Shown: positions 3,988 through 60,030 of the stretch, in pieces
How positions within the stretch are numbered: position 1 is the stretch's first letter
How the letters are laid out: each line of letters opens with the position of its first letter
Origin: Oscillospiraceae bacterium
GTDB lineage: Bacteria > Bacillota > Clostridia > Oscillospirales > Ruminococcaceae
Assembly: GCA_045606725.1 (NCBI GenBank)
Contig: JAZUSM010000119.1
Span: forward strand, 41,491-105,490
Direction of reading: 5' to 3'
DNA: 64,000 nt
Notes under the pieces: generated by a model
The model's database searches: none
Seen by the model: the letters and a program-made list of their open reading frames with translations, nothing else
What the model was told of the DNA's origin: nothing
Translations under genes and position numbers: made by a program

Positions 3988-4062
3988 TGTTATACTGCCT
4001 CCAGATTCAATATATAAAAGCATTTGGTAACATTGTTAAGAAAATAACTTTCCAACTACATA

Positions 4063-6409: not shown

Positions 6410-6425
6410 AGTTTTTTTCCTTTCT

Positions 6426-7481: not shown

Positions 7482-7501
7482 CAGCACGACTCCTTTCGTT
7501 C

Positions 7502-19311: not shown

Positions 19312-19331
19312 AATCCGAAAGGACAAGCCTT

Positions 19332-20510
19332 ATGAGGTTATTCTATTTTTTTCTTCTGATTTTTTCGGTAATCTTCCATGTGCTTTACAAGGGTGACCTT
19401 TCTTTTATCCTGCTTGGATTTGTTATTATATTTCCTGTTTTCATGCTTGTGATACTTATTATCACTTCAAGGGCGGTAAAGGTCACGTCGCACTTTGAAC
19501 AGCTTTCGACGTCAAGAGGAAACTCTGCGGTGCTGAAAATAACAGTAAAAAACCGCTCTGTATTCCCTGTTGTAAGCTGTTGTGCGGAAATAAGATACAC
19601 TCCGTCTGTGCCGTTTGAAGCGCCTGCGGTAAAGAAATTCAGGCTCAGTGCTTCGGTTGGTGCACGCTCCGAGGAATGCTTCGCCCTCAACATAAAGCCT
19701 GAACACTGCGGAAGCACTGACATTTTTGCAGCAAAAATAAAAATCCGTGACATAATGGGACTTTTTTCAATTCCGATAAGAACAAACCTCAGTGGAAAAA
19801 TCATTTCCCTGCCTGTAATTTATCCGATACAAGCGGCAATTGAAAGCAATCCAGCTTCATCTTCGGAAAGCAGTACATTTTCTTCTGTAAAACCGGGCGA
19901 CGACCCATCGGAAATATTTGCGCTGCGTGAATACCGTGAGGGTGACAGCAGTACACGAATTCACTGGAAACTCAGTAGCAGAGGCGAAAACTTTATTGTA
20001 AAGGAATTTTCTCTTCCTGTCGGATGCAGGATACTGATAGTTACTGATTTCTGCGGTTGTAAGAATGCGTCCGCGGCTGACAGAATACTTGATGCTGCCT
20101 TTTCAGTTTCAGAATTTCTCACTGGATATGGCACTGCCCATTCGATAGCATACGCCTGCGCTGACGGCACAATACATTCTCAGGAAATCACTGACGAGAA
20201 TAATTTCAGCTCTGCCTCTGCGGAAATATGCGGCGTACTGAAAGATGCCGCATTTGAGATTACTTTTGCTGAAGCTGTTTCAGCAGATGGTTCGTACCAT
20301 GTGAGAAATAATTTTTCAAGAGTTATTGTTTTTTCCGACAGCACTGATATTGCCCGTGCGGAAGAGTTTGAAGCAGTCTGCGGAGAAGCACGGCTGACAA
20401 TAATCTGCACCGGTTCACCCTGCGCATCCGATGATGTTGAAAAATACCGTGCTGAAATTATTTATGCTGATGCTGAAACTCTCAGCAGCCGTGAACTGCT
20501 GATTATTTAA
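19332..20510 (+). CDS. DUF58 domain protein, copy 2 (YeaD-like)
   Basis: 392 aa with two N-terminal TM helices and the motif REYREGDSSTRIHWKLSSRGENFIVKEF. Confidence 0.8.
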   Translation: MRLFYFFLLIFSVIFHVLYKGDLSFILLGFVIIFPVFMLVILIITSRAVKVTSHFEQLSTSRGNSAVLKITVKNRSVFPVVSCCAEIRYTPSVPFEAPAVKKFRLSASVGARSEECFALNIKPEHCGSTDIFAAKIKIRDIMGLFSIPIRTNLSGKIISLPVIYPIQAAIESNPASSSESSTFSSVKPGDDPSEIFALREYREGDSSTRIHWKLSSRGENFIVKEFSLPVGCRILIVTDFCGCKNASAADRILDAAFSVSEFLTGYGTAHSIAYACADGTIHSQEITDENNFSSASAEICGVLKDAAFEITFAEAVSADGSYHVRNNFSRVIVFSDSTDIARAEEFEAVCGEARLTIICTGSPCASDDVEKYRAEIIYADAETLSSRELLII

Positions 20511-20528
20511 GAAAGGAGGTACGGCAAT

Positions 20529-23108
20529 ATGACTGAACTTACAGCTTCCGTAACTGTTACTGCCGCAGTAAAAAAAGCAGGAACAAAACCTACTCTGCAA
20601 ATGCAGGCGATACGCTTCATTATTGCCGTACTTGGCTGCTGCGGCTCTGCGTTTACGTTTCTTACCTGCTTTGATACAGGCGTGAACGGGTTTGCTGTTT
20701 TCTCGTTAATTGCGGGAATATGTCTTGTGGCAACCGCTTACAGACTCAGAAAAGTAATTGCCTGCTCAGCTCTTGCTTTATCAGCTGTAGGCTGTATTGC
20801 TGCTGCGGTAGCTTTGAGGGATTCATTCTCGTCTGGACTTGCGGGATTTATCAACACCTACTCCTCGCTTGCCTGGGAAAAATACCGCAAAAATCCGATT
20901 TTCACAATCACCGAACCTGAGCTTGCCGAGAAACACACAGCAGCTTTTATAATTCTTTCTGTACTCATAATATACACACTTGCCTGCTATCTTTTTATAC
21001 GCTGTGACGCAGGACTTTACTCGCTTTCGCTTCTGATTGCCCCGACAATTCCCGTTTTTGCAATCGGACTTGAGCCGCATCCATTGGCATTTACTGCACT
21101 TGTTTCGTCGGCAGCGGGTTTGATTGTTCTTGAATTTACTGCATCAAACACAGTTCACAGCCAGCAATTTGCCAAATATGGACTGCAATGTGCGGCAGCG
21201 GCTTCCGCTGTTTCGGCGCTATGCGTCGGGATTGTTTTCGGATTTGCGAAAATTACGGATTATGAGCGTCCTCAGGCACTCAATGACGTTTTTGACAAGG
21301 CTGACACCTACATCAACAGCGGCGAACTTAAGAACAACATCAGGGAAACATTTTCTCAGCTTACGGGAGATTTCTATGTATACGGAGCTATAAATCACGG
21401 AAAGCTTGACGAATTCGGAAAAATCAGGTTTGAATTCACAGATGTCCTTCAGGTTACAATGCCCCGTTCTGCTGATACGGTTTATCTGCGAGGCTTTGTA
21501 GGTTCTGTATACACGGGAAGAAGCTGGGAAGAGCTTCCCGCGGGAAAGCTCCGTGAGCTTGAAGAAATCACGGGTAATTTCTCAACAGATGGCTTATCTC
21601 CGCTTCTGCTGGACAGCTATAATCTGAAAAACGCACCTGCAATACTTCCTAACTACAGCTTCAAGGTGAAAAATATTGCGGCAAATCCTGATTATCTCTA
21701 TATGCCATACAATCTTGTACCCGAAAGCGTATCACGTTACACAATTGTTGACAACAGCTACTTCAAAGGAACTTCCACAACATATTTCGGACAGGTTTAC
21801 GACCCTGACAGTTATCACGGTTATCAGAATCTTTTCAGGAAACGCTGGTCTATTCCGTCATCGCTTATTGAAGATGAAGCGGCTTACAGAAACTTTGTAT
21901 ATGAAAATTATCTTGAACTGCCCGACACATTTTCTCCCTCGGAAATTTTTACTCAGAATTACTATGAATACATTACCGCAGAGGAAATTCAGACGGGAAA
22001 GAGCACACTTGATGAAATGACGGTATTCAGCAGAAAGCTTTACTACATCAAGGACTGGCTTCGTGACAACTGCACCTACAGCCTTACTACTGAACCGCTT
22101 CCAAAGGGAAAGGATTTCGTTAATCATTTTCTTGAATACAAGGAGGGCAGCTGCTCGCATTTTGCCACAACAGCTGTGCTTATGTGCAGATATTCTGGTA
22201 TTCCTGCAAGATATGTGGAGGGATATGTTATTACCCCTCATGACATTGATAAGAGTATTCCTGTCGGGGCAACTGTTACCGTTGATGTTGAGGACACTCA
22301 CGGACACGCGTGGGTTGAGGTCTACATTGATGGCTATGGCTGGTATCCGATGGAATTCACCTCGGGCTACGGCAATGTGAGAACAGCTTTTCCTACTGAA
22401 ACAACTGTTACTGAAACTGAACCTGCTACAGAAAGCTTTACAGAAGAAACCACTGAAACAACTGTTGATGCTGAAAGTGAAGAAACAGAGCAGGCTGCTC
22501 CTCAACCGCAGGAAAATACCACTGAAACCACTGTTGCACAAAACAGTGAAAATATCACACCTGCTGTTACGACAATTCCTTCCGAAGGAACTGAGAAATC
22601 TCTGTCAGAAAGCGATGACAAGAGTAAATCCAGGTCGATAGGTTTCGGTATTTTCGGAATAGAAGGGGAAAAGCAGGTTGATGTTGTTTACGACCTGACA
22701 TGGTTGCTGGTGCTTGTTTTATTGGTTGCAGCAATTCCTGCAGCTGTTATTTTACGCAGGATAATCATAATTTCAAGACGCAGGTCGGCATTATCGCCTG
22801 CTGCAAGGGCAAATGCCGAATACCGCCGTTTCTGCAGTCTTATCAGGATTATGAAGCTGCCTGAGCAAGGCGGTATGACTTACTCCGAATACGGAAATGC
22901 ACTTGCTGAACGCTCTCCGCTTCTTGATGAAGGCAATGCTTCACAGGTAATTGGTCTGGCACTTAAAGCCTCTTTCGGCGGCGACAGCATTACACATAAT
23001 GAAGTGCATGAAATGCAGGCTATAGTTACAACTCTTGCCAAAAGATATTATGCTTCTCTTTCGGCATGGGGCAAGTTCAAGATGAAATTTGTTCAATGCA
23101 TTATATAA
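20529..23108 (+). CDS. Transglutaminase-like membrane protein (YebA-like)
   Basis: 859 aa with an N-terminal polytopic region and a transglutaminase core (GSCSHFATTAVLMCRYSGIPARYVEGY, HGHAWVEVY). A Thr/Glu-rich linker (TETTVTETEPATESFTEETTETTV), a late TM and a C-terminal cytoplasmic domain follow. SD AAGGAGG. Confidence 0.85.
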   Translation: MTELTASVTVTAAVKKAGTKPTLQMQAIRFIIAVLGCCGSAFTFLTCFDTGVNGFAVFSLIAGICLVATAYRLRKVIACSALALSAVGCIAAAVALRDSFSSGLAGFINTYSSLAWEKYRKNPIFTITEPELAEKHTAAFIILSVLIIYTLACYLFIRCDAGLYSLSLLIAPTIPVFAIGLEPHPLAFTALVSSAAGLIVLEFTASNTVHSQQFAKYGLQCAAAASAVSALCVGIVFGFAKITDYERPQALNDVFDKADTYINSGELKNNIRETFSQLTGDFYVYGAINHGKLDEFGKIRFEFTDVLQVTMPRSADTVYLRGFVGSVYTGRSWEELPAGKLRELEEITGNFSTDGLSPLLLDSYNLKNAPAILPNYSFKVKNIAANPDYLYMPYNLVPESVSRYTIVDNSYFKGTSTTYFGQVYDPDSYHGYQNLFRKRWSIPSSLIEDEAAYRNFVYENYLELPDTFSPSEIFTQNYYEYITAEEIQTGKSTLDEMTVFSRKLYYIKDWLRDNCTYSLTTEPLPKGKDFVNHFLEYKEGSCSHFATTAVLMCRYSGIPARYVEGYVITPHDIDKSIPVGATVTVDVEDTHGHAWVEVYIDGYGWYPMEFTSGYGNVRTAFPTETTVTETEPATESFTEETTETTVDAESEETEQAAPQPQENTTETTVAQNSENITPAVTTIPSEGTEKSLSESDDKSKSRSIGFGIFGIEGEKQVDVVYDLTWLLVLVLLVAAIPAAVILRRIIIISRRRSALSPAARANAEYRRFCSLIRIMKLPEQGGMTYSEYGNALAERSPLLDEGNASQVIGLALKASFGGDSITHNEVHEMQAIVTTLAKRYYASLSAWGKFKMKFVQCII

Positions 23109-25741: not shown

Positions 25742-28396
25742 TTATTTCAGCACGCATTGCAGAAGCGGTGCGGAAATCGCAAACCCTAATGCAATGAGTA
25801 ACTGTTCAGTGGTAAGGGGGACCGTTGCAAAAATAACCTGCATATACGGCAGGTAGATTGCTGCAAAAATTACTGCTGCTGAAAACAGGACTGCTCCGAT
25901 AAGCTTTTTATTGTTAAGATACGGCACGGTGAAGATATTCTTTTTTTCGCTTTTGCATTCAAAGACATGGAAAAGCTGTGACATTACAAGGGTAAGCAAT
26001 GCTGCTGTTCTTGCGGCGGCAACATTTGCAAAAATGTAATTCACTGCCGCAAAGCTTCCAAGTGTACACAACCCGATAAGCACGCCTCTGAAAATAATCT
26101 TCTGCATGAGTCCGCCTGAAAAGAAGCTTTCACTGCTTTTTCGCGGCGGCATTTTCATATTCTCACGGTCAGGAGGCTCGACGCCCAGTGCAATTGCAGG
26201 CAGACCGTCTGTAACAAGGTTGACAAGCAAAATCTGCGTAGGAAGAAGTACCATAGGCATTCCGCAGATTATTCCCAGAAACATTGTCAGCACCTCTCCG
26301 ATGTTACAGCTTAACAGGTAACGGACGAACTTTCTTATGTTGGAATAAATTCCGCGTCCCTGCTCAACTGCGCTGACAAGGGTTGCAAAATTATCGTCAA
26401 GCAAAACAACATCTGCCGCCTGCTTGGTAACGTCTGTTCCTGTGATACCCATTGCAACACCGATACTTGCTTCCTTTACGGCAGGTGCGTCGTTTACGCC
26501 GTCCCCCGTCATTGTAACAATTTCTCCCTTACGCTTGAACGCACGGACAATTCTCAGCTTATCGGCAGGTGTTACACGGGCAAAAACAGCTGTTTTTCCG
26601 ATAACCTCATCGAGTGCGCTGTCTGACATTGCCGCAAGCTCCTCTCCGTTAAAAATCAAGTCACCCTCACGCATTATTCCTGCCTGCTTTGCAACAGCGG
26701 CGGCAGTATTTTTATGGTCGCCAGTAATCATTACTGTACGGATATGAGCACTTCGGCAAAGTCTTACCGCCTGTCTTGCTTCAGCACGTGGTGGGTCAAG
26801 CATACCCTGCAGGCCAAGAAAAATCATTCCTGTTTCAGTATCGGAGCCGCTTGCAAGATTTTTCCTGCACAAGGCAAGCACACGTAGCGCATCGGAAGTC
26901 ATTCTGTCATTTGCTTCAAGAATTGCGCGCCTCTTTGCCGCTGTAAGAGGTATTGTATCGCCGTCCTCAAGGACAAAGGCACATTTTTTCAGTATTACAT
27001 CAACGGAGCCTTTTGTATAAGCTGTCCTGCCGCCGTTTTCACGGATTATAACCGTCATACAGCGTGTATCGCTGTCAAAAGGTATTTCGTCAAGCTTTTC
27101 TCTGCCGTGAGAAAGCTTTTCTGCAGTAATTCCGCACTTCGCCGCCGCAACAAGAAGCGCCGCTTCGGTGGGGTCACCTGTAACCGTCCATTCACCGCCT
27201 GCAGAAAGCTTTCCACGCTCACGGGTCGAAATGTCGTTTTTGGCGGTAATTGAAGCACTTGTACAAAGCGTACCGCAGATAAGTGCTTCACGCAAAGCCA
27301 TTTCAGAAACAGGATTTACCCTTTCTCCGCCGCAGGTTACCTCGCCTGCAATTCTGTATCCGCTGCCCGAAAAATCATATTCCTTTCCTCCGCAGTACGC
27401 CTTTGTAACCGTCATTTTGTTTTCGGTAACCGTACCTGTTTTGTCGGTACAGATTACCGATGCACAGCCAAGAGTTTCAACGGAATGGAGTTTGTGCACA
27501 AGGGCATTCTTTTTCAGCATTCGTCCCACTGCTAACGCAAGAGCGATTGTTACCGTTGCAGGAAGTCCTTCGGGAATTGCCGCAATTGCAATGGTTATTC
27601 CTGTCATGAGCATATCGAAAACAGGCTCGCCTCTGAGTATTCCTGCAAGTGCCACAACAATGCAGACCACAAGGCAGATTACCGCAATTATTTTTCCAAG
27701 TTCAGCAAGACGCTTCTGCAAAGGTGTAAGCTCGTCATCTATTTCTGTAAGCATATCAGATATTTTTCCTACCTGGGCTTCCTTTCCTGTTGCGATAACA
27801 CGTGCTTCCGCACTTCCTTTCGTAACAACCGTGCCACTATAAAGCACACCCTTTTTGCCAAGAGAATTATCCTCATCGGTAATATTCTGAACTTCCTTTT
27901 CTACTGCTGCTGACTCGCCTGTGAGAATACTTTCTTCGGCAAGCAGACCCTTGGCTTCGGTAATGGTACAATCCGCAGGCACTCTGTCGCCTGCTTCAAG
28001 ACGGATTACATCTCCCCTGACAAGCTTTGCCGCAGGAATTGTCTGCAAAGCACCATCACGGAAGCATTTTGCTAAGGGTGCAGTCATATTCTTCAAGGCA
28101 ATAAGAGTTCTTTCGGTACGGTATTCCTGCACAAAACCAAGAATTGCATTCAGCAGGACAATTATTACTATTGTAACTGCGTCGTAGATTTCACCGAGAA
28201 AGAATGACACAACGGTTGCTGCAAGCAAAATCATAATCATCACGTCACGGAACTGCCCAAGAAAAATTTTAAGCGGCTTTGCCTTTTTTTCATCCGCAAG
28301 CACATTTTCTCCGTATTTTGCAAGTCTTTCTTCCGCCTCGGCACTGGACAGACCCTTTTCAGGCGAAATATACGGCTTATCAAGAATTTCAAGCAT
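25742..28396 (-). CDS. P-type Ca2+-transporting ATPase (P2 type)
   Basis: 884 aa with motifs LTGES, ICTDKTGTVTENKM, MITGDH and TGDGVNDAPAVKEA, plus 10-TM organisation. SD AAGGAGG. Confidence 0.88.
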   Translation of the reverse strand: MLEILDKPYISPEKGLSSAEAEERLAKYGENVLADEKKAKPLKIFLGQFRDVMIMILLAATVVSFFLGEIYDAVTIVIIVLLNAILGFVQEYRTERTLIALKNMTAPLAKCFRDGALQTIPAAKLVRGDVIRLEAGDRVPADCTITEAKGLLAEESILTGESAAVEKEVQNITDEDNSLGKKGVLYSGTVVTKGSAEARVIATGKEAQVGKISDMLTEIDDELTPLQKRLAELGKIIAVICLVVCIVVALAGILRGEPVFDMLMTGITIAIAAIPEGLPATVTIALALAVGRMLKKNALVHKLHSVETLGCASVICTDKTGTVTENKMTVTKAYCGGKEYDFSGSGYRIAGEVTCGGERVNPVSEMALREALICGTLCTSASITAKNDISTRERGKLSAGGEWTVTGDPTEAALLVAAAKCGITAEKLSHGREKLDEIPFDSDTRCMTVIIRENGGRTAYTKGSVDVILKKCAFVLEDGDTIPLTAAKRRAILEANDRMTSDALRVLALCRKNLASGSDTETGMIFLGLQGMLDPPRAEARQAVRLCRSAHIRTVMITGDHKNTAAAVAKQAGIMREGDLIFNGEELAAMSDSALDEVIGKTAVFARVTPADKLRIVRAFKRKGEIVTMTGDGVNDAPAVKEASIGVAMGITGTDVTKQAADVVLLDDNFATLVSAVEQGRGIYSNIRKFVRYLLSCNIGEVLTMFLGIICGMPMVLLPTQILLVNLVTDGLPAIALGVEPPDRENMKMPPRKSSESFFSGGLMQKIIFRGVLIGLCTLGSFAAVNYIFANVAAARTAALLTLVMSQLFHVFECKSEKKNIFTVPYLNNKKLIGAVLFSAAVIFAAIYLPYMQVIFATVPLTTEQLLIALGFAISAPLLQCVLK

Positions 28397-28465: not shown

Positions 28466-28505
28466 GATATAAAAACAGTCCTTGATTTTGTATCAAGGAC
28501 TGTTT
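28466..28505 (-). terminator. Rho-independent terminator after the giant flagellin gene
   Basis: Reverse strand: AAACAGTCCTTGA-tacaaaa-TCAAGGACTGTTT followed by TTTTATATC, 23 nt after the stop at 28528. Confidence 0.85.
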
Positions 28506-28527: not shown

Positions 28528-31500
28528 CTAAGCAATGATATTGAGCACAGACTGCTGGTGGTTTCTGAAATGACCGAAAATAGTCTGCTGAGTCTGATTG
28601 AGAATCTGGTGCTTGGTGTAGTCGGCATACTGCTTTGCCATATCGGCGTCACGGATCTGCGATTCAGCTGCAGAAAGATTTTCGATATAATTCTGACGAT
28701 TTGCAAGTGCATGCTCCGAACGGTTTTCATAAGCACCGCTTACTGCACGCTGCTTTGAAAGGTAATCATTTGCAAGGTTAAGACGATTGATTGCCTTTGA
28801 AGCTCTTTCGGCAGTTGTTACACCTGTTGTGTTGATTCTCATGAGATGCTCGTCAACACGGGTCTTTTCGTACATGATATAGTCATCTGTACGACGTCCC
28901 TTGTGGATACCGATATCAGTATCTTCTTCTCTGCTTTCGCCGCCGTAGATAATATCATTTGCAGCTTTGCCTGTAAACTTATCAAAGACAAAATCGCCGT
29001 TTTCAATTGTGTAGAACATAATTCTGCCGTCACGGTGTCCAACTCTTACATCTGAGCTTGCAGCTGAAAAGCTGTTGTTCAGCTGTTCAGCAAGCTCCTC
29101 CACAGTATATTCGCCGTGAGGAATATCTACATTTGCAGGCACGCCGTCAAGCTCAAAACCAAGAGTATCATTTTCATCATTGATTACGATACCGTCAGAA
29201 AGGTCAGGCTTGCCGTAGAATGTGGACGGCTGAGGTGAACGTGTTGCATCATAGAAAACTCTGTATGCGGAATTACCACGGATACCATCAATAATTGCTG
29301 TAGTTTTGCCGTTTCTTCCGTCATCTGGAAGCTTGCACCAGAGTACAAGCTTACCGGAGCTTGAAATACCTGTATTGTTTTCGGGAACGCCAAGCTCGGA
29401 AAGACCGATTGAAGCATTGAAGAAATCGTCAGGGAAGCTGTTTCCTGTGTAATCGGTAAGCTTTGCAAATTCTTCTCTGCCCTTCTGCTCGATTACGTTG
29501 GCAAGTTCCTTTTTGGTGTAGTCGCCTGCGGGAATTTTGAATTCGATAGTATGAGTCTGTCCGCCGTAGTTAAGGTCAAAAATCATTGTATCATTCAGAT
29601 CAGTGTAGATACAAACATCCTTGCCTGAAAGCTGTTCGTCCTTACTCATTGGTTCAAGGCTGTTTCTGCCGACAATGTAGGACAGTGTGCTGCCGAGGGA
29701 AGTTCCCTTGGTTTCTGTATGGCGGTTTATGCTTTCATAAGCTGCATTCTGGAACACCTTATCGAAAAGACGACCGCTGAAGTTGCTGATTTTGCGTGTA
29801 TCAGACGGTGTAGCGCCCTTGATAGAAATTGTTCCGTTATTGTTTGAAACAATAAGCTGGTCAGTACCGAGAGCATTGTCAATTGCTGTCTGGAGTGCTG
29901 TTTTCAGCGTATCGGCTGTATAAGTTCCTGCAGGAATTGAAATATTCACTCTGCCTGAAACAAGACTTCCGTTTACATCTGTAGCATAATCAAAGGACAT
30001 CTCATTGTTGTAATCCTCGATTGTAATGCTTGTGATATAATTTCTGGAAGTGATTGTACATCTGCTGTCGTTTCTTGAAACAGTGCTTTCCTTTGCAACG
30101 TTGTTGGACTTACTGTAAATTTCGGAAGTATTTGCGCTGCTCATGGAAATATCTGCTGCAGCACCCTTTGTATCTGTAATGATTGTAAGAGTTGTTCCAG
30201 AAGCTGAAACAGTTGCGCCGCTGCCTGCAAAGCCAGCCTGAAGCTGGGAAACAAGGCTGTTCATGCCTGCATTACCCACATAATCGCCCTCTGCAAGGTC
30301 AAACTCAACTGTATTGCCGTTGATTGTAAGGGCAACGTGCTTGTTCTTGTCATTGACTTCAAGTCCATCACCGCTGAAAAGGGTATTGAACTTATTGTTT
30401 GTGAGAATTGCGGGGTAATAAACCTTATTTGTTGATGTGTCAATAGTACCGTTACTGCCTGCACTTGCCTTGGAAATATACTTATCAAGACCTGCTGTTC
30501 CGCCGAAGTTGCTGAGGGAATAGCCTTTACCGCCGTTCTTGGTGGTGAAGGTAAGACCCTTGCCCGATGCGTAGCTTACAGAAATGATATCCTTGAGTGC
30601 AGGGTCATTGCTGACAACATTGCTGATTGCCTGTGCACAGTCAGAAGCGGAATTGTAAGTACCGTCAGGAATAGTAATTGTAATATTCTTTGTTTCCGAC
30701 GGAGATTTGTAAGTAAAGGTTACTGTGTTATTTGCTGAAGTTACTGTCATAGGGAAATGGGAGTCAAAGCCTGCTGCTGTAACGGAAGCAGGTTCTTCAA
30801 TTTTACCTGTTGCAGGATTATAGTTCGGGTTGCCTGCTGTTTCCTTGACATTTTTGGTTTTATAGATATTGCAGTTGGTTTTTGCAGTATCAATTGTAAA
30901 GGAACCGCTTTCGGTAAGAGGTCCTTTGAAAACAAGGGATTTTCCTCCGCTTCCTACGGAAACGGTTGTCTTAGGATTGCCGCCGTCAGCTTCAGCAATT
31001 CTTGCGTTGAGTTCTGCAGCAATTGCTTCTGCGGAGGTATATGTGCCGCTTGTAAGGGTCAGGTCGTAATTTGTTGCACCTGCCTTGAAAACGAACTTAT
31101 TGTTTGTTCCGTCAATTGTATAAGGAAGCTGTGAAGCAACGTTAGGAATTGTCATTGAGGACGGTACATAAACTCTGTTGTGAGTTTCATCCACAACTGC
31201 ATCCGTTCTTGAAGCAACCGCATTCTTATATGCGGAATTTGCCATTGAACAGCTGCCTGTTGCAATCTGAACGCCGTCGCCCTTTTCAGTTGTTGTTACA
31301 ACAAGAGTATTGCCGTCAGCCTTGGCGGTAGCCTTGCCGTTAAGCTCCTTGTTGATTGCAGCAATAGCCTGTTCCTTGGTTGAACCCTTAGGAACTGTGA
31401 TATTGAATGCAGTTGAACCTGTTGTATCTGTTACAGAAAGGACAAGATTTACATCTCTGAGGGATTTGCCTGCTGCTGTAAACTGCGACAAAGCGTTTGT

Positions 31501-33606
31501 CATAGTCAGTGAAGCCGGGTACTTTTCAATTCTTTCATCACCAATGATGGACTCACTATCGTCGTACTCAACCTCATAGCCGTTTTTGATGGATGGAGTA
31601 ACGCTGTTATAGATAATATAATTCTGAGTAATCTGAGCGTTTGTTGTCACCTGATTTGAATATGTAACAACATCCGTTGTTGTACCTGCTGTGGAAGAAA
31701 CTGCCGGCTTACCTGATGGCATTGTTCCGGAGCCGCTTGCATAAGGTTTCTCGCTGCCCTTGTCAATTTCATAATTGTCTGTATAGTAAACGCCGCCTAT
31801 AAGGTTTGCATAACCGCTTGATGAGGAAGAAACCGAGAAAGACCTGATATCTGCGCCGCTGTATTCAATTGCTGAAAGCTTGATTGTACCGTCTACGGTA
31901 AATTTCAGCTTTGAAGAAAGGTCGGGATAATTTGCCGCAACCTGATTGTTAAGCTCATTCTGGAGAGAAGCTGCTGTATATGTTCCCTGAGGAACTGTCA
32001 CTGACATTGTCTTGTTTCCGCTGTCTGTTGCAACTGTGAATACAAGCTCATTTTCATTGGCAGGAACTTCAATTGAGCTGCCGAGATTTTTCTGTGCTGT
32101 AAGGCTTGCAGGACGGAAAGAAGATGTTGTCACGGACGGATTAAGCTTATTGAGGGTACCCTTGTCAAAGAGGTCATAAAGCATATATCCGCTTGGAGCA
32201 AGGCTTTCAACGAGGTCAATCTTGCACTTGTCACCGTACTGGTCGGACTTGATAACAAGAGTTCCCGAAGAACCGATTGCTGCTGTAAAAGGCAGGTCAC
32301 CAAGCTGTTCGTTAATTCTTGCTGCAAGGTCGGAAGGATTTGCGTATATTCTTTCATTTTCCGAGTCATCAAGGAGATTAATCTGAACTCTGCGTTTTTC
32401 GGCAGCATCATTTGCACCATACCAACTGAGGTCAAGGGTAAAGTGTTCGTTTCTGCCTCTTACGATTTCAGTATTTACGGGGATAACCTTCTTACCTGAG
32501 AGTACAGACTGAGTGTTATTTGTGTAGCCGTAATTTGCAATATCGTAAATCGGCGAGGATTTGTTATCCATTTTAAGGAAGTTCCCTGTCAGACCTGTGA
32601 TTGTTTCCTTGCAGGCAATACCAATAATCATGCCGCCTTTTGCATTTGTTTCAGGAACAGCCTTGATATCACCAGGGATACCTGATGCAGCAAACTTAGC
32701 GTTCATATGGTCGATAAGCTGGTCACGGGTATACTTTCCTGCGTCGAGGGTTACAGAATAAATTGTATCACTTTCTCCAAGGCGGAAAGACATAACATCG
32801 TTTTCGCCTGTGAAGATTTCGAGCTTTGCATTTTCGTGAACAAATGTTGTTACGCCGAGAAGATAACCGCTTTCAGAACCGATTGTTGCGTCATAGAAAA
32901 GAGTTGCGCCAGGGCCGCCTACATAGTCGATTTTACCGGGTTCAGACTGAATTGTGAATTCTCTGTTTTCATTTACACCGATAATAAGATTAGGAACTTT
33001 GTCATAAAGCTCTGTATCAATTACGTCAGCAAGCTCCTCTGCGCTGTATGTGCCGTAAGGAACATTGATTGTGTATTCCTTCTGCTGACCGTCGAGTGTA
33101 TAGCCGATAACAAGAGGCATATTCAGATCGTTTACAACAACAGCCTTATCATGAACGACTACGCCCTCGTTAAGACCGTAGGACTCAAGGTGCTTTTCAA
33201 AAAGAGAAAGCCCATTAAAATGTGAAGTATCGGTAATCTGACCGATTTCCTCAAGAAGCTGCTGATATTCAAGGTCGAGCGCACCTCTGTCAATGCTGTC
33301 ATAAGTGCCGTTAGCCGCCTGAACAGCAATTGTTTCAAGGCGGTGAATGATATTATGTATTTCCTGAGCGGAACCGTCAACGGAATGGAGATAGCTGATG
33401 CCGTCATTAAGGTTCTTGACGCCCTGGTCAAGACCTGCAATAATTCCGCGCATTTTTTCTGAAACAGCAAGTCCTGCCGCATCATCAGCAGCACGGTTAA
33501 CCTGATATCCGCTTGCAAGCTTTTCGAGAGATTTCTGGAGCTTGGAATTGGTTTTTCTGTTTCTGTTAACAAGAAAATCAGCGCCTTTGAAATTTGTAAC
33601 GGTCAT
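28528..33606 (-). CDS. fliC: Giant flagellin (1692 aa): canonical flagellin N- and C-terminal helical domains flanking a central region of about 1450 aa
   Basis: N-terminus: LEKLASGYQVNRAADDAAGLAVSEKMRGIIAGLDQGVKNLNDGISYLHSVDGSAQEIHNIIHRLETIAVQAANGT. C-terminus: LSKQRAVSGAYENRSEHALANRQNYIENLSAAESQIRDADMAKQYADYTKHQILNQTQQ. Both match conserved D0/D1 flagellin segments. SD GGAGGA is 7 nt from the ATG and a sigma-28 promoter lies upstream. Confidence 0.85.
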   Translation of the reverse strand: MTVTNFKGADFLVNRNRKTNSKLQKSLEKLASGYQVNRAADDAAGLAVSEKMRGIIAGLDQGVKNLNDGISYLHSVDGSAQEIHNIIHRLETIAVQAANGTYDSIDRGALDLEYQQLLEEIGQITDTSHFNGLSLFEKHLESYGLNEGVVVHDKAVVVNDLNMPLVIGYTLDGQQKEYTINVPYGTYSAEELADVIDTELYDKVPNLIIGVNENREFTIQSEPGKIDYVGGPGATLFYDATIGSESGYLLGVTTFVHENAKLEIFTGENDVMSFRLGESDTIYSVTLDAGKYTRDQLIDHMNAKFAASGIPGDIKAVPETNAKGGMIIGIACKETITGLTGNFLKMDNKSSPIYDIANYGYTNNTQSVLSGKKVIPVNTEIVRGRNEHFTLDLSWYGANDAAEKRRVQINLLDDSENERIYANPSDLAARINEQLGDLPFTAAIGSSGTLVIKSDQYGDKCKIDLVESLAPSGYMLYDLFDKGTLNKLNPSVTTSSFRPASLTAQKNLGSSIEVPANENELVFTVATDSGNKTMSVTVPQGTYTAASLQNELNNQVAANYPDLSSKLKFTVDGTIKLSAIEYSGADIRSFSVSSSSSGYANLIGGVYYTDNYEIDKGSEKPYASGSGTMPSGKPAVSSTAGTTTDVVTYSNQVTTNAQITQNYIIYNSVTPSIKNGYEVEYDDSESIIGDERIEKYPASLTMTNALSQFTAAGKSLRDVNLVLSVTDTTGSTAFNITVPKGSTKEQAIAAINKELNGKATAKADGNTLVVTTTEKGDGVQIATGSCSMANSAYKNAVASRTDAVVDETHNRVYVPSSMTIPNVASQLPYTIDGTNNKFVFKAGATNYDLTLTSGTYTSAEAIAAELNARIAEADGGNPKTTVSVGSGGKSLVFKGPLTESGSFTIDTAKTNCNIYKTKNVKETAGNPNYNPATGKIEEPASVTAAGFDSHFPMTVTSANNTVTFTYKSPSETKNITITIPDGTYNSASDCAQAISNVVSNDPALKDIISVSYASGKGLTFTTKNGGKGYSLSNFGGTAGLDKYISKASAGSNGTIDTSTNKVYYPAILTNNKFNTLFSGDGLEVNDKNKHVALTINGNTVEFDLAEGDYVGNAGMNSLVSQLQAGFAGSGATVSASGTTLTIITDTKGAAADISMSSANTSEIYSKSNNVAKESTVSRNDSRCTITSRNYITSITIEDYNNEMSFDYATDVNGSLVSGRVNISIPAGTYTADTLKTALQTAIDNALGTDQLIVSNNNGTISIKGATPSDTRKISNFSGRLFDKVFQNAAYESINRHTETKGTSLGSTLSYIVGRNSLEPMSKDEQLSGKDVCIYTDLNDTMIFDLNYGGQTHTIEFKIPAGDYTKKELANVIEQKGREEFAKLTDYTGNSFPDDFFNASIGLSELGVPENNTGISSSGKLVLWCKLPDDGRNGKTTAIIDGIRGNSAYRVFYDATRSPQPSTFYGKPDLSDGIVINDENDTLGFELDGVPANVDIPHGEYTVEELAEQLNNSFSAASSDVRVGHRDGRIMFYTIENGDFVFDKFTGKAANDIIYGGESREEDTDIGIHKGRRTDDYIMYEKTRVDEHLMRINTTGVTTAERASKAINRLNLANDYLSKQRAVSGAYENRSEHALANRQNYIENLSAAESQIRDADMAKQYADYTKHQILNQTQQTIFGHFRNHQQSVLNIIA
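28926..33159 (-). repeat. Divergent tandem protein modules (about 11) in the flagellin central region
   Basis: The motif [IVL]x[IVL]PxGxY[TS]xxxLxxx[IL]N recurs with the Gly at aa 185, 290, 541, 854, 982, 1107, 1227, 1361 and 1498, plus degenerate copies near aa 421 and 741. Spacing is 105-137 aa, except one 200-aa gap. aa 541 and 1227 were checked against the DNA. Confidence 0.7.
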
Positions 33607-33651
33607 TTCAGCTTCCTCCTTTCCACATTATTCAACAAACTTACAATATAT

Positions 33652-33678
33652 TTATCGGCACAACTGACAAAAACTTTA
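33652..33678 (-). promoter_or_regulatory. Sigma-28 (FliA/SigD)-type promoter: TAAA-15 nt-GCCGATAA
   Basis: Reverse strand: TAAA (33678-33675), exactly 15 nt of spacer, then GCCGATAA (33659-33652). This is an exact match to the flagellar sigma-factor consensus, 45 nt upstream of the flagellin ATG. Confidence 0.7.
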
Positions 33679-33725: not shown

Positions 33726-33756
33726 AAGAAGCCTTACCCTCGGGGTAAAGCTTCTT
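33726..33756 (-). terminator. Rho-independent terminator after the GH5 gene (33778..34884)
   Basis: Reverse strand: AAGAAGCTTTACCC-cga-GGGTAAGGCTTCTT followed by TATTTATT. Confidence 0.8.
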
Positions 33757-33777: not shown

Positions 33778-34884
33778 TCAATTGCCGCGCCACTCGGCAT
33801 TTTCAGTTCTTGCGTTAATAAGCTCCTTTATGTATTTTCCTGTTTCACTGAGGAAAATATCCTGAGCGAAAATACTGGAGGTTTCGTCCTTGTCATTTAC
33901 AGCCCAGTTACAGCTTGAAATATTATTCTCATCCATCCACTTGAACCATTCCTCGGTAGAAGTTTTGTCAATGCTTCCGTTTCCGTCTGCATTTACGCTT
34001 CCCCACTCGGTAACAAAAAGCGGAATTCCCTTTTCAAGCGCCTTATCGGCATTATCCCTGAGCCACTGCTTATGAGTACCTGCATAGAAATGGAGTGTAT
34101 ATGCTATATTTTCACCATCAACAGGATTACCTGCTGCAGAAAGGACATCCTGTGACCATGTCGGTGAGCCAACAATAACAAGATTATCGGAATGCTTTCT
34201 TATAGCAGGAATAACCTTTTCCGCATATTCCTTTACTGTATCCCAGCTTATCTGGGTAGGTTCGTTGAAAACTTCAAAAATAACATTATCATAGCTTCCG
34301 TATTTTTCAGCAAGCTGTTCAAAATATGCAATCGCTTCATCAGGATTATTATGGGCACCGTGAGAATGCCAGTCAATAATTACATAAACTCCTCTTTCGA
34401 TAGCCTGTTCAATTACGTCCTCAATAAGCGGCTCGCAGGATTTGTCATACGGTACACCGTTATCCTGAATTCCGTATGAACAGCGCACAATCTCGCAGTT
34501 ATAATCATCAACAAGGTAATCAACATAATCTGCTGTATAATATTTCTGTGACCAGTTGCTCCAGAAAAAGCTCATTCCTGTGACACGGACGGTTTCACCA
34601 GTATTCTTTCCCACAAGCTTATTTCCGTCAGCAATTATTTCACCGTAGTATGCAACAGGAGTATTTTCAGAAATTTCAGACTCGTCTGATGTAGTTTCTT
34701 CTGTAATTTCTTCCGCAGCTTCTGATGTTGCTTCTGGTTTTACCGTTTCCTCTGAAACGGAAATTGTTTCTGCGGTAGTTACAGTAAGCTGTTCGGTTGT
34801 CTGTATAGAAGCATCAGGAACCTCCGCCGCATTACAGCCTGTCAGCATTGCGCACATAACTAATATTATCAGGGCTTTTTTCAT
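33778..34884 (-). CDS. GH5 endoglucanase, lipoprotein with a Thr/Glu-rich linker
   Basis: 368 aa with lipobox MLTGC. Motifs: acid/base in FEVFNEP, nucleophile in FVTEWGS, and HFY. Confidence 0.85.
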   Translation of the reverse strand: MKKALIILVMCAMLTGCNAAEVPDASIQTTEQLTVTTAETISVSEETVKPEATSEAAEEITEETTSDESEISENTPVAYYGEIIADGNKLVGKNTGETVRVTGMSFFWSNWSQKYYTADYVDYLVDDYNCEIVRCSYGIQDNGVPYDKSCEPLIEDVIEQAIERGVYVIIDWHSHGAHNNPDEAIAYFEQLAEKYGSYDNVIFEVFNEPTQISWDTVKEYAEKVIPAIRKHSDNLVIVGSPTWSQDVLSAAGNPVDGENIAYTLHFYAGTHKQWLRDNADKALEKGIPLFVTEWGSVNADGNGSIDKTSTEEWFKWMDENNISSCNWAVNDKDETSSIFAQDIFLSETGKYIKELINARTENAEWRGN

Positions 34885-35004: not shown

Positions 35005-36693
35005 TTATCTTACACCCTTATAAACACGCCCTGTTTTCAGGCGCTCTTCAAATTCGCTGCACGGAAGAGGCTTGTCAAACAGATATCCCTGAGCCATACT
35101 GCATTGAAAATCCTCCAGCAGGTCAGCCTGAATATTTGTTTCAACGCCCTCAGCAACAACCTTCATATCAAGCTCATTTACCATATTTACGATGTTTCTG
35201 ATTACGACCTCATCGGATTTCTTTTTATCGCCGAGATTATCGAGGAAGGACTTGTCCAGCTTGATAATATCAACATCAAGGTCTTTCAGCAAATTCAACG
35301 AGCTGTAGCCTGTACCGAAGTCATCAATAGAAGTGCTTACACCGAATTTTTTCATTTTTCTTACGAACTCAGCCAGAGCCTCATAATCCTCATAACCTGA
35401 TGACTCAGTAAGTTCTACCTCTACGTATGACGGGTCAACACCATGTTTGTTTATAATTTCAATAATTTTATCTGCGAAATCAACATCATGCAGGTGAAGC
35501 TTTGAGAAATTCGTTGAAACTCTTACAGGGACAATTCCCATGTTAATCCAGCGCTTTATATCTGCACAAACCCTGTCAAGCACATAAAAATCAAGACGGC
35601 ATATTGACCCTTCGTGTTCAAGGACAGGAATAAATTCAGCAGGCGGAACAATACAGCCGTTTCTTATCCATCTTGTAAGAGCTTCGCAGCCGCACAGGCT
35701 GTTATCTGCAAGTCCTACCTTAGGCTGATAGAATACCACAAATTCTTCCTTGCGCAAAGCTTCAGGGAAAATAGTTGAGATTTCATTTGCCTTAAAGGTC
35801 TTGTCCATCATGTCAGCTCTGAAGTAGACATTATCTGTTCTGCTAACATTCTTGGCTATACCGAGAGCTGTAGAAGCTGAATTTATGGCATTATTTGCTG
35901 TATCATTCTCAACAGTCATGTATATGCCTGTTCTTGAAGAAATATTTATAGAACGTTTTTCTCCTGCCAGTTCATTTTCAAACTGCATATCCGACACAAA
36001 CTCAAGCAGTTCATTGACACGTTCTTTTCGTATTACAGTGCAGAAGTTATCACCGCCTGGACGTGAAACTACACCATCATCTTTTACAAACTTCATCAGT
36101 CTGTGTGCACAGCGTTTAAGCACGATATCAGCCTGCTTCTCACCTATAAGGCGGTTGACATATCTGAAATTCTTGAGATTAACAAAAATAACTGCATAAT
36201 CCTTGAAATCCCCTGAATTTACAAGCTTTTCACAGTGCATTACAAACCCATGCATATTTAATGCACCTGTAGTAATGTCAATAGAGCTTATTTTGTTCAT
36301 TACGCCAAGCATCTGAACGCGTCCGCCGAGGATGAAAAGGTTTTCAGCTATAAATCTGATATCCTTTAAATCTTCTTCATTCCACTTACAGCCTTTTTCA
36401 GGATAAAAGGACATACTCAGGGTTCCGTTTTCACCTGTGCGGAAAATAAAGGTTTCGGGACAATCGTCATACCCAGCTTCAGAAGTATATAATATCACTG
36501 TCTGATTAATTCCATCAATATTGAACGGTGTTTTAGGTGCCATAAAAGTTTCGGAGCTACGTCCTATCTTCAATTCCTGTGCAACCTCTGTTATTGCTGA
36601 AGAAACAAAAGAAACAAATTCGTCCATGCTAAATGTCATACCGTTGATTTTGTAAAAGAAATCCCTGTACAGTTCACTGCATATCTTACTCAT
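35005..36693 (-). CDS. c-di-GMP phosphodiesterase: unknown N-terminal domain, degenerate GGDEF domain, intact EAL domain
   Basis: 562 aa. The GGDEF signature reads GGDNF (nt 36043-36057) and the upstream DxD/FK segment reads VNLKNFRYVN. EAL motifs are intact: CEALTRW, DDFGTGYSS, KLDKSF, EGVET, QGYLF. Confidence 0.85.
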   Translation of the reverse strand: MSKICSELYRDFFYKINGMTFSMDEFVSFVSSAITEVAQELKIGRSSETFMAPKTPFNIDGINQTVILYTSEAGYDDCPETFIFRTGENGTLSMSFYPEKGCKWNEEDLKDIRFIAENLFILGGRVQMLGVMNKISSIDITTGALNMHGFVMHCEKLVNSGDFKDYAVIFVNLKNFRYVNRLIGEKQADIVLKRCAHRLMKFVKDDGVVSRPGGDNFCTVIRKERVNELLEFVSDMQFENELAGEKRSINISSRTGIYMTVENDTANNAINSASTALGIAKNVSRTDNVYFRADMMDKTFKANEISTIFPEALRKEEFVVFYQPKVGLADNSLCGCEALTRWIRNGCIVPPAEFIPVLEHEGSICRLDFYVLDRVCADIKRWINMGIVPVRVSTNFSKLHLHDVDFADKIIEIINKHGVDPSYVEVELTESSGYEDYEALAEFVRKMKKFGVSTSIDDFGTGYSSLNLLKDLDVDIIKLDKSFLDNLGDKKKSDEVVIRNIVNMVNELDMKVVAEGVETNIQADLLEDFQCSMAQGYLFDKPLPCSEFEERLKTGRVYKGVR

Positions 36694-37020: not shown

Positions 37021-39087
37021 TTATTCACTTCTTTTTTCTGCACCGTTTATAACAATTCTTGCTCGTCCCCCATCAATTCTGATTTTGTCTTCACTGATGT
37101 AGTCGGCATAATCCGTTTTTGTAACCAGATCAATAGAAGAATCCGAATTAACAAGTTGAATTTCCGAGTCGCCGCTGAGGCTTCCAAGTGCAAGCGCATT
37201 GTCACCCTTTACAACTACATTCATACTTGCCTTATCAAGTATGAAGCGAGTTGCACCTTCAAGTGCTGCAACCGCTGAACAACGGTCAGCGATAATATTG
37301 AATTTTGTACTTGCCTCGCAAATTACAACATCGCAGTTTCCGCCCTTAAGAGTACCGATACCAACTGTATCTGTACCCGAAAGGTAAAGCTTCAACGCAC
37401 TGTGACGTACACTGACTCTGCAGTTTCCATCAAGCGTACCTATTGCCACACCATGTTCAGATGAAATCTCGACTGAAATATCACAGGCAAACAATTCAAG
37501 ATCGGTATCAGTATCAATTGCTCCTATTCCGACACCCATATAGCCAGCCATATTGATAAAGAACTGACCCTTTAATATACTTATCTTTCCGCCGAGTCCC
37601 GAACCTATGCCCACTCCGCTTGCAGCATGATTATCGATTGTTACACCCTGTCTGAAGACAAGTTCACCATGTCTTGACTCACCGTCATTTCCTATTGCAT
37701 AATAACCCGAGCCATTTATGAAAACCGAGAGTCCTCCGTCGCCGCTTACTGTAAGCTTTGAGCTTTCCGGTACTTTTATTCCGCCGTTTTTCAGCTGATT
37801 GTTACCAGAAAGGACAAGCTCAACATCACAGTTTTCACCTATATTGATACATGGGCGGTTCTTTTCGTTGGAAAGCATTGCATTGTCAAGGATGATGCTT
37901 CCCCTGAAATCGTTTGCAACGTCAATATGGATTTTTGTATCAATTTCCAGAGAACCTGCGACGATTATGTCACCGTTTCCATCTCCGCCTACCATCACGC
38001 ACTTATATCCGTCCTTTTCAATCCTTTCAAGAAGCACTCTTTCTGACTTCACGGCATTATAGACCTGAAGCTTTTTACCGTCCTCACGTTCCTGCCGATA
38101 GCGCTTGATTTCCTGTCTTATTTCACGGGGAATTGACTCTGCAATCACTGCTGACGGTCTTGCTGTATAATAGCCTTGGATAAGGTCAACACCAAGCTTG
38201 ACAACTGTATGTAATTCCTCAGATGTTTCGACACCCTCAGCAAGTGCAAGAATTCCGTTATCATGACAGAAATCTATTATCTCACGCACAAAATAACGCT
38301 TCTGCCTGTTGTTATGTATATCACTCAGCAGTGAACGGTCTATTTTTACGTAATGAGGCATATATCTCAGCAGATTGTGCACGTTTGAATATCCCGTACC
38401 GTAATCGTCAATTGCAATCTGCACATTCATGCCGTCATACATTTCCCTGATTTCACCGAACTCGCTTTCACCCATTTCCGACTGCTCGGTCATTTCAACA
38501 ACAACGCTGTCCGGATGCTTTTCCATAAAAGCCTTTGTTTTGCTGAGATTTTCATCATTCAGCCTTGCCCTCGGAATACTGTTGATAAAAACCTTTCTTC
38601 CGCCGAATTCTTCTTTCTTGCTGTCAATAATACCAAGAACATTGAGAAAGGTTGCTTTTTCAATATCGTCAAGCCGTTCCATTATTTCAGCATATTTTAT
38701 AATATGATACGGACTCGGACACACACTGCTCCTAGGACGCATAAGCGCTTCGTAGGAATAAATTTTTCCGTCAGTAGCTCTTACTATCGGCTGAAAATGG
38801 TAATCAAAGAGATTTTCGTCAATAATCCTGCGCACTTCGGCAAGCTCTGCACGTTCCTGTTCTGTTCTCACAGCAAATCTGCACTCATTCGTATCGTTCT
38901 CTCTGAGTGTTGCCAGTTCATTTCCGATATTCCATATATCTTCAAGCACGTTTTTCCACTCCGCGCTTCCATCTGTATCAAGTGAAGGGAAATATTTACC
39001 TGTAACAGCTTCAAGTTCCTTTAAGCTATTTATGCCTTTAAGTTCTGAAAAAAGCTCATGCAGAAGTTTCAATTTCATTTCGTTCAT
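37021..39087 (-). CDS. EAL-domain c-di-GMP phosphodiesterase fused to a C-terminal repeat domain of about 330 aa (predicted beta-solenoid), cytoplasmic
   Basis: 688 aa with no signal peptide or TM. EAL motifs: YEALMRP, INSIP, VVEMTE, DDYGTGYSN, KIDRSL, AEGVET, QGYY. From about aa 360 the sequence is Gly/Ile/Val-rich with short recurring strands. Confidence 0.8.
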   Translation of the reverse strand: MNEMKLKLLHELFSELKGINSLKELEAVTGKYFPSLDTDGSAEWKNVLEDIWNIGNELATLRENDTNECRFAVRTEQERAELAEVRRIIDENLFDYHFQPIVRATDGKIYSYEALMRPRSSVCPSPYHIIKYAEIMERLDDIEKATFLNVLGIIDSKKEEFGGRKVFINSIPRARLNDENLSKTKAFMEKHPDSVVVEMTEQSEMGESEFGEIREMYDGMNVQIAIDDYGTGYSNVHNLLRYMPHYVKIDRSLLSDIHNNRQKRYFVREIIDFCHDNGILALAEGVETSEELHTVVKLGVDLIQGYYTARPSAVIAESIPREIRQEIKRYRQEREDGKKLQVYNAVKSERVLLERIEKDGYKCVMVGGDGNGDIIVAGSLEIDTKIHIDVANDFRGSIILDNAMLSNEKNRPCINIGENCDVELVLSGNNQLKNGGIKVPESSKLTVSGDGGLSVFINGSGYYAIGNDGESRHGELVFRQGVTIDNHAASGVGIGSGLGGKISILKGQFFINMAGYMGVGIGAIDTDTDLELFACDISVEISSEHGVAIGTLDGNCRVSVRHSALKLYLSGTDTVGIGTLKGGNCDVVICEASTKFNIIADRCSAVAALEGATRFILDKASMNVVVKGDNALALGSLSGDSEIQLVNSDSSIDLVTKTDYADYISEDKIRIDGGRARIVINGAEKRSE
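37024..38010 (-). repeat. Coding region for imperfect short repeats of the C-terminal domain ([VAL]-[GA]-[IAL]-[GL] turns)
   Basis: YAIG (aa 463), VGIG (492), VGIG (529), VAIG (547), VGIG (575), VAAL (606) and LALG (632) are spaced 18-37 aa apart. Each is followed by a short x-L-x-G or D-G turn. Confidence 0.5.
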
Positions 39088-58347: not shown

Positions 58348-58363
58348 TAAAGGAGTATTGAAA

Positions 58364-59038: not shown

Positions 59039-59039
59039 T

Positions 59040-60029: not shown

Positions 60030-60030
60030 C

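Follow-up and report, generated by a model that had tools for sequence, protein, structure and literature searches.

A conserved 11-module giant flagellin gene in gut and rumen Oscillospiraceae

Giant flagellins, which combine flagellin termini with a length of more than 1000 amino acids (aa), occur in many phyla, Firmicutes (Eubacterium plexicaudatum) included; internal duplication has enlarged them, leaving two DE regions in tandem (Thomson et al. 2018, PMC6248924). They form thicker filaments: Salmonella filaments measure 24 nm, and thicker ones have been reported for giant flagellins of ~1000 aa (PMC6248924). The flagellin of Geovibrio thiophilus, described as the largest flagellin solved by cryo-electron microscopy, carries outer domains D2-D5 in a 24-nm filament, and its history includes recruitment and then duplication of a FliD-D2-like domain (Nat Commun 2024, PMC11532411). 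In gut Oscillospiraceae, flagellin genes often lie apart from the main flagellar operon, and motility loci are dispersed (bioRxiv 10.1101/2025.07.18.665615). Here we analyze a 64,000-nucleotide stretch of an Oscillospiraceae bacterium genome (assembly GCA_045606725.1, contig JAZUSM010000119.1, positions 41,491 to 105,490; hereafter, the window) and within it an open reading frame (ORF) of 5079 nt (28528..33606, minus strand). At 1692 aa, its product falls within the giant-flagellin definition of Thomson et al. (2018), and we consider it likely to be a functional late-class flagellar filament protein, that is, a flagellin, of a flagellated rumen or gut Oscillospiraceae.

The ORF starts with ATG and encodes a protein of 182 kDa with a pI of 4.9; its GC content and codon usage agree with those of the adjacent genes. 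An initial annotation of this DNA, made from the letters alone, had described canonical flagellin termini with about 1450 aa between them, and profile searches bear this out. Pfam Flagellin_N matches residues 14-138 (profile positions 12-136 of 139) at 107.4 bits against a cut-off of 26.6, Flagellin_C matches residues 1612-1690 of 1692 at 50.7 bits against a cut-off of 23, and ~1470 aa separate the two domains. The N-terminal D0/D1 helical region spans residues 1-140 (33187..33606, minus strand) and matches residues 10-137 of solved flagellins, while the C-terminal D1/D0 helical region spans residues 1561-1692 plus the stop codon (28528..28926, minus strand). Flagellin models also rank first in NCBIfam, led by NF009446 (flagellin Hag) at 165.1 bits (cut-off 352); these subfamily models cover full-length flagellins of ~280-580 aa, and the giant protein, aligning through its termini only, scores below the curated cut-off of every named flagellin subfamily. 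The 60 top-ranking PDB sequences are without exception filament flagellins, with both termini aligned. Among them is Bacillus subtilis Hag (structures 5wjt and related, ~130 bits), which shares the D0/D1 sequence but is a 304-aa protein without an outer domain, whereas ~1420 extra residues lie between ND1 and CD1 here. Pfam detected neither FliD_N nor FliD_C in the protein, which places it outside the FliD cap family.

The modular outer region that had been proposed for this protein takes the form of 11 tandem modules, each ~90-125 aa long. Self-BLAST of the protein returned no repeats; profile-profile comparison of 120-aa windows with the orthologue alignment returned ~11 mutually homologous segments at hhalign probabilities of 90-98%, and a hidden Markov model (HMM) of the module hits each orthologue exactly 11 times, at corresponding positions, down to the most distant. 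All modules are encoded on the minus strand. Those supported by profile self-comparison, the AlphaFold2 model and the module HMM are M1 (residues 152-238; 32893..33153), M2 (256-343; 32578..32841), M3 (375-468; 32203..32484), M4 (506-595; 31822..32091), M6 (824-911; 30874..31137), M7 (947-1038; 30493..30768), M8 (1077-1160; 30127..30378) and M9 (1189-1285; 29752..30042). M10 (1328-1452; 29251..29625), which contains an insertion, and M11 (1468-1554; 28945..29205) are supported by profile self-comparison and the module HMM, and M5 (717-791; 31234..31458) by the module HMM, a near-match to Pfam Flagellin_IN and a predicted local distance difference test score (pLDDT) of ~97. Between M4 and M5 lies an all-β segment that gives no repeat signal (residues ~606-702; 31501..31791, minus strand; AlphaFold2 model). 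Paralogous modules share ~20-35% identity with each other, while orthologous modules share 30-90% across species, so the duplications are older than the family, which has kept the number of copies unchanged. The 11-module architecture has thus been retained across a family that diverges to ~33% identity.

Both predicted structure and sequence profiles relate these modules to flagellar outer domains. An AlphaFold2 model of residues 141-1340, built from 68 aligned sequences, has a mean pLDDT of 86.6 and a predicted template modeling score (pTM) of 0.44, and folds each module as three strands, a ~15-residue helix and three further strands. When the module array was compared with the PDB by Foldseek, the top match was Helicobacter pylori FliD (6iwy; E = 1.7e-5, prob 0.99), and the outer domains of Pseudomonas aeruginosa FliC and Vibrio Fla were also matched. 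With one module as query, the top 13 matches were all FliD D2-D3 or flagellin outer domains (prob 0.85-1.0, 12 of 13 at >=0.89; E = 2e-3 to 1.5e-2); M5 likewise matched FliD D2-D3. M5 also aligns with positions 1-54 of the 55 in Flagellin_IN (PF07196) at 21.1 bits (E = 3.6e-4), just short of the gathering cut-off of 22.7. None of the nine other modules scanned (M3 was left out of the scan) matched this family, and a few orthologues carry a precomputed PF07196 match. The β-rich segment has ~14 short strands at pLDDT 85-93 in the 1200-aa model; in an isolated prediction of residues 596-800, residues 596-660 drop to pLDDT 44-56, while ~661-702 stay mostly confident. Because confidence for residues 596-660 is lost when they are predicted alone, we assign no fold to this segment, and Foldseek with the isolated prediction gave no match of carbohydrate-binding type.

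These results do not support the initial proposal of adhesive or substrate-binding domains: the modules resemble FliD D2/D3 or Flagellin_IN, and Pfam searches of the whole protein and its modules found no significant enzyme, carbohydrate-binding or adhesin family. Matches to X25_BaPul_like, pAdhesive_11, DinI, Cass2 and LDL lectin (E = 0.03-0.2) were rejected as noise, and the central region matched no PDB sequence. Flagellinolysins and other enzymatic clostridial flagellins (PMC7643111) are likewise Firmicutes proteins with a large insert in the hypervariable region, functional in flagellinolysins, but the giant flagellin lacks both HExxH and HxxEH and contains neither a peptidase domain nor that of any other enzyme.

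The closest resemblance of the modules is to the D2-D3 domains of FliD (6iwy, 6sih and 5h5t), their best structural matches at Foldseek prob 0.97-1.0, though the termini here are of flagellin type and the likeness is one of domain fold, at 11-19% identity (E = 1.7e-5 for the array, ~2e-3 for one module). As in G. thiophilus, a multi-domain outer region appears to derive partly from a duplicated FliD-D2-related domain recruited from flagellar genes; the outer region there has four domains, while the one here has 11 modules and a β-rich segment, with ~3x the outer mass, in a predicted structure. The Oceanospirillales giants (Bermanella marisrubri, Oleibacter marinus) also exceed 1000 aa and have D0/D1 termini, a duplicated outer unit and no recognizable enzyme domain. 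However, they carry two 'DE' regions (with or without a DX insert) rather than 11 tandem modules, measure ~1000-1100 rather than ~1700 aa and belong to marine Gammaproteobacteria rather than to Gram-positive anaerobic Oscillospiraceae of gut and rumen; filaments have been seen there, and the evidence here is sequence. The module is likened here to the DE region by description only. A literature search found no paper describing the 11-module flagellin family. To our knowledge, AlphaFold DB lacks most proteins longer than 1280 aa. Outer-domain folds were surveyed in 2024 from the AlphaFold DB entries of proteins labeled 'flagellin' in UniProt, a sample from which the giant family is therefore probably missing.

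Purifying selection acts strongly on the ORF throughout its length. Against orthologues of 91% and 86% identity, at synonymous divergences (dS) of 0.5-0.8, the ratio of nonsynonymous to synonymous substitution rates (dN/dS) is 0.09 and 0.11, respectively, and ranges from 0.02 to 0.19 along the ORF. The ratio is lowest in the D0/D1 termini (0.02-0.06: 0.05-0.06 at the N-terminal end, 0.02-0.035 at the C-terminal end), intermediate in the flanking modules M1, M2, M10 and M11 (0.04-0.10) and highest in the middle modules M4-M9 (0.09-0.19). Such low ratios along the ORF exclude a decaying relic. The gradient would fit a filament subunit whose chain runs out and back, with constrained core and core-proximal parts and a freer surface.

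The gene's own regulatory signals point to the flagellar hierarchy. Upstream, the gene is separated from its neighbor by the intrinsic terminator of that gene (33726..33756, minus strand; 14-bp stem and T-run), and a second intrinsic terminator, also with a 14-bp stem and T-run, lies 23 nt past the flagellin stop codon (28473..28505, minus strand); with terminators on both flanks, the gene is monocistronic. Between the upstream terminator and the ORF stand a σ28/SigD-type promoter, TAAAGTTT-ttgtcagttgt-GCCGATAA (33652..33678, minus strand), whose -10 element ends 45 nt before the ATG, and, by direct reading, a Shine-Dalgarno GGAGG (33615..33619, minus strand) 8 nt 5' of the ATG. The promoter matches the σ28 consensus TAAAGTTT-n11-GCCGATAA (PMC2859248) at 16 of 16 positions; the exact motif TAAAGTTT-N11-GCCGATAA occurs once in the window, where its 16 specified bases would occur by chance ~3e-5 times. 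It also fits the SigD form of B. subtilis and Clostridioides difficile, TAAA-N13-16-GCCGATAW, which drives C. difficile fliC (aTAAAgtt...CCGATAAt, with transcription starting 68 nt upstream of the start codon; PMC3865298). The gene thus resembles hag and C. difficile fliC in being monocistronic under a TAAA-N15-GCCGATAA-type promoter, and we would expect σ28/SigD to drive its transcription. A CsrA/FliW partner switch acting on the flagellin is possible, given GGA motifs in the 5' untranslated region and a conserved C-terminal ENR. Comparison with Rfam gave no cyclic di-GMP (c-di-GMP) riboswitch, nor any other known RNA, for the window or for the flagellin-flgB spacer of the orthologous locus L124. 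A one-mismatch σ28-like site, TAAA-N15-ACCGATAA, at 288-314 (minus strand) lies inside a truncated Fe-ADH-like ORF at the window edge and is probably due to chance, as 0.47 such sites are expected.

The σ28 motif recurs, with 0-2 mismatches and 63-76 nt before the ATG, in seven orthologous loci whose proteins share 52-91% identity with the window protein: L001 (91%), L126 (86%), L085 (66%), L129 (65%), L131 (63%), L124 (62%) and L125 (52%). The intergenic sequence around the motif diverges among these loci. Genomes with this conserved promoter would be expected to encode a σ28 factor and, with it, a flagellar regulon. Orthologues of <=48% identity (L084, L086, L087 and L088-L122) carry, ~100 nt upstream, a strong σA-type TTGACA-N17-TATAAT promoter and no σ28 motif; these σA clades include the abundant human-gut species, while the form in the σ28 clade is TAAAGTTT-N11-GCCGATA(A/T). 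This clade-wise split suggests that regulation of the giant flagellin has been rewired.

The initial annotation had expected a modular flagellin of this size to be unusual, and the number of relatives speaks against rarity. A search of 5.8 billion proteins gave 211 matches, among them at least 87 full-length orthologues of 1688-1833 aa, which reach down to 33% identity and come nearly all from metagenome-assembled genomes (MAGs) of Oscillospiraceae or 'Ruminococcus' from rumen and gut. One 1702-aa orthologue (44% identity) represents a cluster, P0068/P0121, with 3842 member sequences; by this measure, a prevalent human-gut bacterium carries the gene. Scanning metagenomes with an alignment specific to the family yielded 34 loci at ~50% identity, mostly in gut-metagenome assemblies, several of them titled human gut metagenome. 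In an exhaustive search of 1.84 billion representative proteins, the central region found only 123 matches, the full-length ones in two size classes (~1200-1290 aa and 1600-1830 aa), so that, judged by sequence, its superfamily is compact and made up of giants. Beyond Oscillospiraceae, Lachnospiraceae and Bacillaceae have related forms of 8-11 modules: the module HMM detects 8 modules in the cultured Robertmurraya andreesenii and 11 in a record titled Bacillus sp. MAG, and also matches a Lachnospiraceae MAG. With giants also listed in Firmicutes by Thomson et al. (2018), the initial finding is real but was over-interpreted: the protein is an extreme, conserved and so far uncharacterized variant of the giant-flagellin theme. 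Our literature search found no description of motility for R. andreesenii or for Huintestinicola (CAG-353), a genus to which one fragment of the 63%-identity cluster is assigned.

The orthologue gene is always a stand-alone unit in a variable neighborhood, and several of these neighborhoods are flagellar. At L124, a GGDEF-EAL gene precedes the orthologue, and genes for FlgB, FlgC, FliE, FliF, FliG, FliH, FliI, FliJ, FliK and FlgD directly follow it; at L086, a methyl-accepting chemotaxis protein (MCP) gene adjoins it. At L129, a second σ28-driven giant flagellin gene (L129:13471-16310), which runs off the locus, lies 7 kb from the 1693-aa orthologue. Its 1227-aa product has a canonical MRIQNN... 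N-terminus and the promoter TAAAGTTT-N11-GACGATAT, and is not matched by the 11-module HMM, so its outer region is different. The 8-module gene of R. andreesenii (L005) occupies the classical hag position, followed, after a small insertion, by genes for FlaG, FliD (633 aa; L005:10085-11986), FliS and Hpf. These contexts at L124, L086, L129 and in R. andreesenii indicate that the family belongs to flagellated organisms. The description of the gene as an orphan in a non-flagellar setting therefore stands for the 64 kb of the window but not beyond it, where the perfect, conserved σ28 promoter, the flgB-fliK genes of L124 and the MCP gene of L086 tell otherwise.

The FlgD (hook cap/scaffold) of L124, encoded at L124:23549-25069 and poorly annotated, has 506 aa. 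FlgD has ~140-230 aa in model organisms, so this is a second oversized flagellar part in the same lineage. It has more than 400 homologues, the best 120 listed being ~430-620 aa long and mostly from Oscillospiraceae MAGs; the locus-tag prefix of the MAG that holds the 91% orthologue (IJC04) is not among the homologues listed.

If the protein is the filament subunit we take it to be, σ28-RNA polymerase would transcribe its gene after completion of the hook-basal body, the unfolded 182-kDa chain would be exported via the flagellar type III channel, and the flagellin would polymerize under the FliD cap through its D0/D1 helices. All the steps after transcription we infer. The ~1420-aa insert would fold outside the core as 11 FliD-D2/D3-like (Flagellin_IN-type) β-α-β modules and one β-rich segment: M1, M2, M10 and M11, nearest the termini and most constrained, would pack close to the core, and the least constrained middle modules, M4-M9, would be exposed on the surface. 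The array probably arose by ancient serial duplication of a flagellar outer domain. From the mass per unit length (182 kDa at a rise of 4.7 Å per subunit), we estimate that the filament would probably be at least 24.5 nm wide if solid, and 32-39 nm wide at a packing fraction of 0.6-0.4, with 30-40 nm the likelier range; very thick filaments are thus the probable product of the giant flagellin. Such a thick coat might stiffen the filament for swimming in viscous digesta or mucus, shield the core or make contact with surfaces, and the module array itself may adhere.

GGDEF-EAL or EAL genes, whose products act in c-di-GMP turnover, are close neighbors of the giant flagellin gene, one to a few genes away, in the window and at L001, L126, L124 and L129, a circumstantial hint that c-di-GMP may coordinate motility. 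A bolder version of the filament reading, which we regard as possible but doubtful, is that the 11 FliD-like modules form an ordered, multi-layer sheath around the flagellar core, so that gut and rumen Oscillospiraceae, a prevalent human-gut species among them, would have a thicker flagellar filament (>30 nm) than any yet known. Such a sheath might have a second role, beyond propulsion, in contact with plant fiber or mucus, coordinated with c-di-GMP via the neighboring GGDEF-EAL genes, and the ~500-aa FlgD might be part of a co-adapted, enlarged machine.

Several observations weigh against a functional filament protein. As the initial annotation had stated, the window holds no other flagellar gene: among all 48 substantial ORFs, compared with Pfam, and in the intergenic gaps, inspected for small ORFs, there is no fliD, fliS, flaG, fliW, csrA, hook, motor, export or chemotaxis gene. 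The σ28 factor, export apparatus, hook and motor of the source organism are accordingly inferred rather than seen, and the flagellin reading rests on sequence rather than on transcript, protein or microscopy. The σA-type promoters of orthologues at <=48% identity indicate that coupling to σ28 is not universal in the family. The protein may be the major flagellin, one of several or a minor one, and the relative at L129 has two giant flagellin genes. A filament of ~20,000 copies of a 182-kDa subunit would be costly. In the predicted structure, the geometry between modules is uncertain, as the pTM of 0.44 indicates, and the one-module Foldseek E-values reach only ~1e-3 to 1e-2.

Some of these points could be accommodated by a protein that is exported and co-regulated with the flagellum without being its bulk subunit: a minor or specialized flagellin (forming a short proximal or distal segment or a sparse co-polymer), or a secreted or surface scaffold or adhesin whose flagellin termini would serve just for export and anchoring, with another flagellin, of ordinary size or not, building the propeller. 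The metabolic cost of the subunit would fit such a role, as would the possibility of more than one giant flagellin gene per relative (L129), the surrounding glycoside hydrolase genes, with one of family 5 (GH5) directly upstream in the three closest relatives, and the σA promoters of distant orthologues, which suggest expression outside the flagellar hierarchy. We nevertheless consider it unlikely. The segments under the strongest constraint are D0 and D1, which serve polymerization, and not an export signal alone; the R. andreesenii homologue sits at the hag position itself; giant flagellins that have been tested experimentally do form the filament (PMC6248924); and Pfam detects no adhesin, carbohydrate-binding or enzyme domain.

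An expanded hook-filament junction protein (FlgL/HAP3-like) would also carry Flagellin_N and Flagellin_C termini, and FlgL models do score on the termini of the giant protein (TIGR02550, 67.6 bits; PRK06663, 71.9 bits). These scores are far below the respective cut-offs of 127.2 and 337 and well below those of flagellin models (up to 165 bits), FlgL is absent from the top 60 PDB matches, and the gene, monocistronic under σ28 like fliC and hag, is not paired with flgK, all of which makes a junction protein highly improbable. That the gene is an evolutionary relic, neither expressed nor functional in a lineage without flagella, would account for the missing flagellar neighbors, and some gut Clostridia do keep flagellin genes after loss of motility genes (bioRxiv 10.1101/2025.07.18.665615). 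A relic would, however, hardly keep a 5-kb frame intact, a dN/dS of ~0.1 over its entire length against two relatives (dS 0.5-0.8), a length and an 11-module count conserved across at least 87 orthologues, and a perfectly preserved σ28 promoter, Shine-Dalgarno sequence and terminators; it is already very unlikely, and we give it the least weight of the three.

The immediate neighbors, all on the minus strand, are those initially described and confirmed here by Pfam: a P-type cation ATPase (25742-28396), a GH5 lipoprotein (33778-34884) with the N-terminus MKKALIILVMCAMLTGC and its lipobox, a GGDEF-EAL protein for c-di-GMP turnover (35005-36693), which we treat as context only and which has counterparts of the same kind near orthologues, and an EAL protein (37021-39087). 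The window also carries further GH5, GH16 and GH113 genes and sugar ATP-binding cassette (ABC) transporter genes, and the source, as had been supposed, is a fibrolytic Clostridia-type organism, an Oscillospiraceae. In the three closest relatives (L001, L126-L128), the GH5 lipoprotein gene is again directly upstream of the flagellin gene with a terminator between them. This adjacency is local synteny only, since the neighbor differs in more distant orthologues.

Elsewhere in the window, the regions 18355-23108 and 5480-7487 carry a triad of MoxR AAA+ ATPase, DUF58 and transglutaminase-like (859 aa) genes and a second MoxR gene, which is followed by an overlapping 353-aa ORF with no Pfam match. 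The regions 58358-62868 and 985-4023 carry genes for a response regulator, a histidine kinase, an ABC ATPase and an FtsX-type permease, in an arrangement like that of Bce-type peptide-antibiotic sensing and detoxification modules, and, separately, a gene for a fused ABC-FtsX protein of 1012 aa. Among the human-gut contigs (L088-L123), L122 has a 1.08-kb intergenic region upstream of the orthologue and a neighboring gene for a 1409-aa protein without a Pfam domain.

Other very long flagellin ORFs in Bacillota (1200-2350 aa) surfaced in a contig profile search with the full-length alignment, which was dominated by the generic flagellin pattern [IV]N[RS]AADDAA and recovered one partial orthologue. 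They include matches (L013, L034, L058 and L079) in Natroniella sulfidigena (~2330 aa), a Butyrivibrio MAG (~2356 aa), Paenibacillus azoreducens (~1868 aa) and a Pseudobutyrivibrio MAG (~1988 aa). These long flagellins give weak matches or none with the module HMM.

Few proteins of gut Clostridia are as abundant or as visible to the immune system as flagellins, and almost all knowledge of them comes from subunits of 270-600 aa. Our data suggest that a 182-kDa subunit is kept under strong selection by anaerobic Firmicutes of gut and rumen, among them a species that abounds in human-gut metagenomes. For annotation, this means that a protein labeled 'hypothetical protein' in the closest relative (91% identity) is probably a σ28-controlled flagellin, and that an absent flagellar neighborhood is not proof of a non-motile organism. 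The finding changes no paradigm but should interest flagellar structural biologists, as a giant flagellin of this kind raises testable questions of how it is exported, how it assembles under the cap and how it behaves mechanically in viscous digesta or mucus. If it does form filaments, flagellar filaments would span a wider range of sizes than is known now, and the protein would clearly exemplify how a flagellin can grow when a domain taken from the flagellum itself is duplicated serially.

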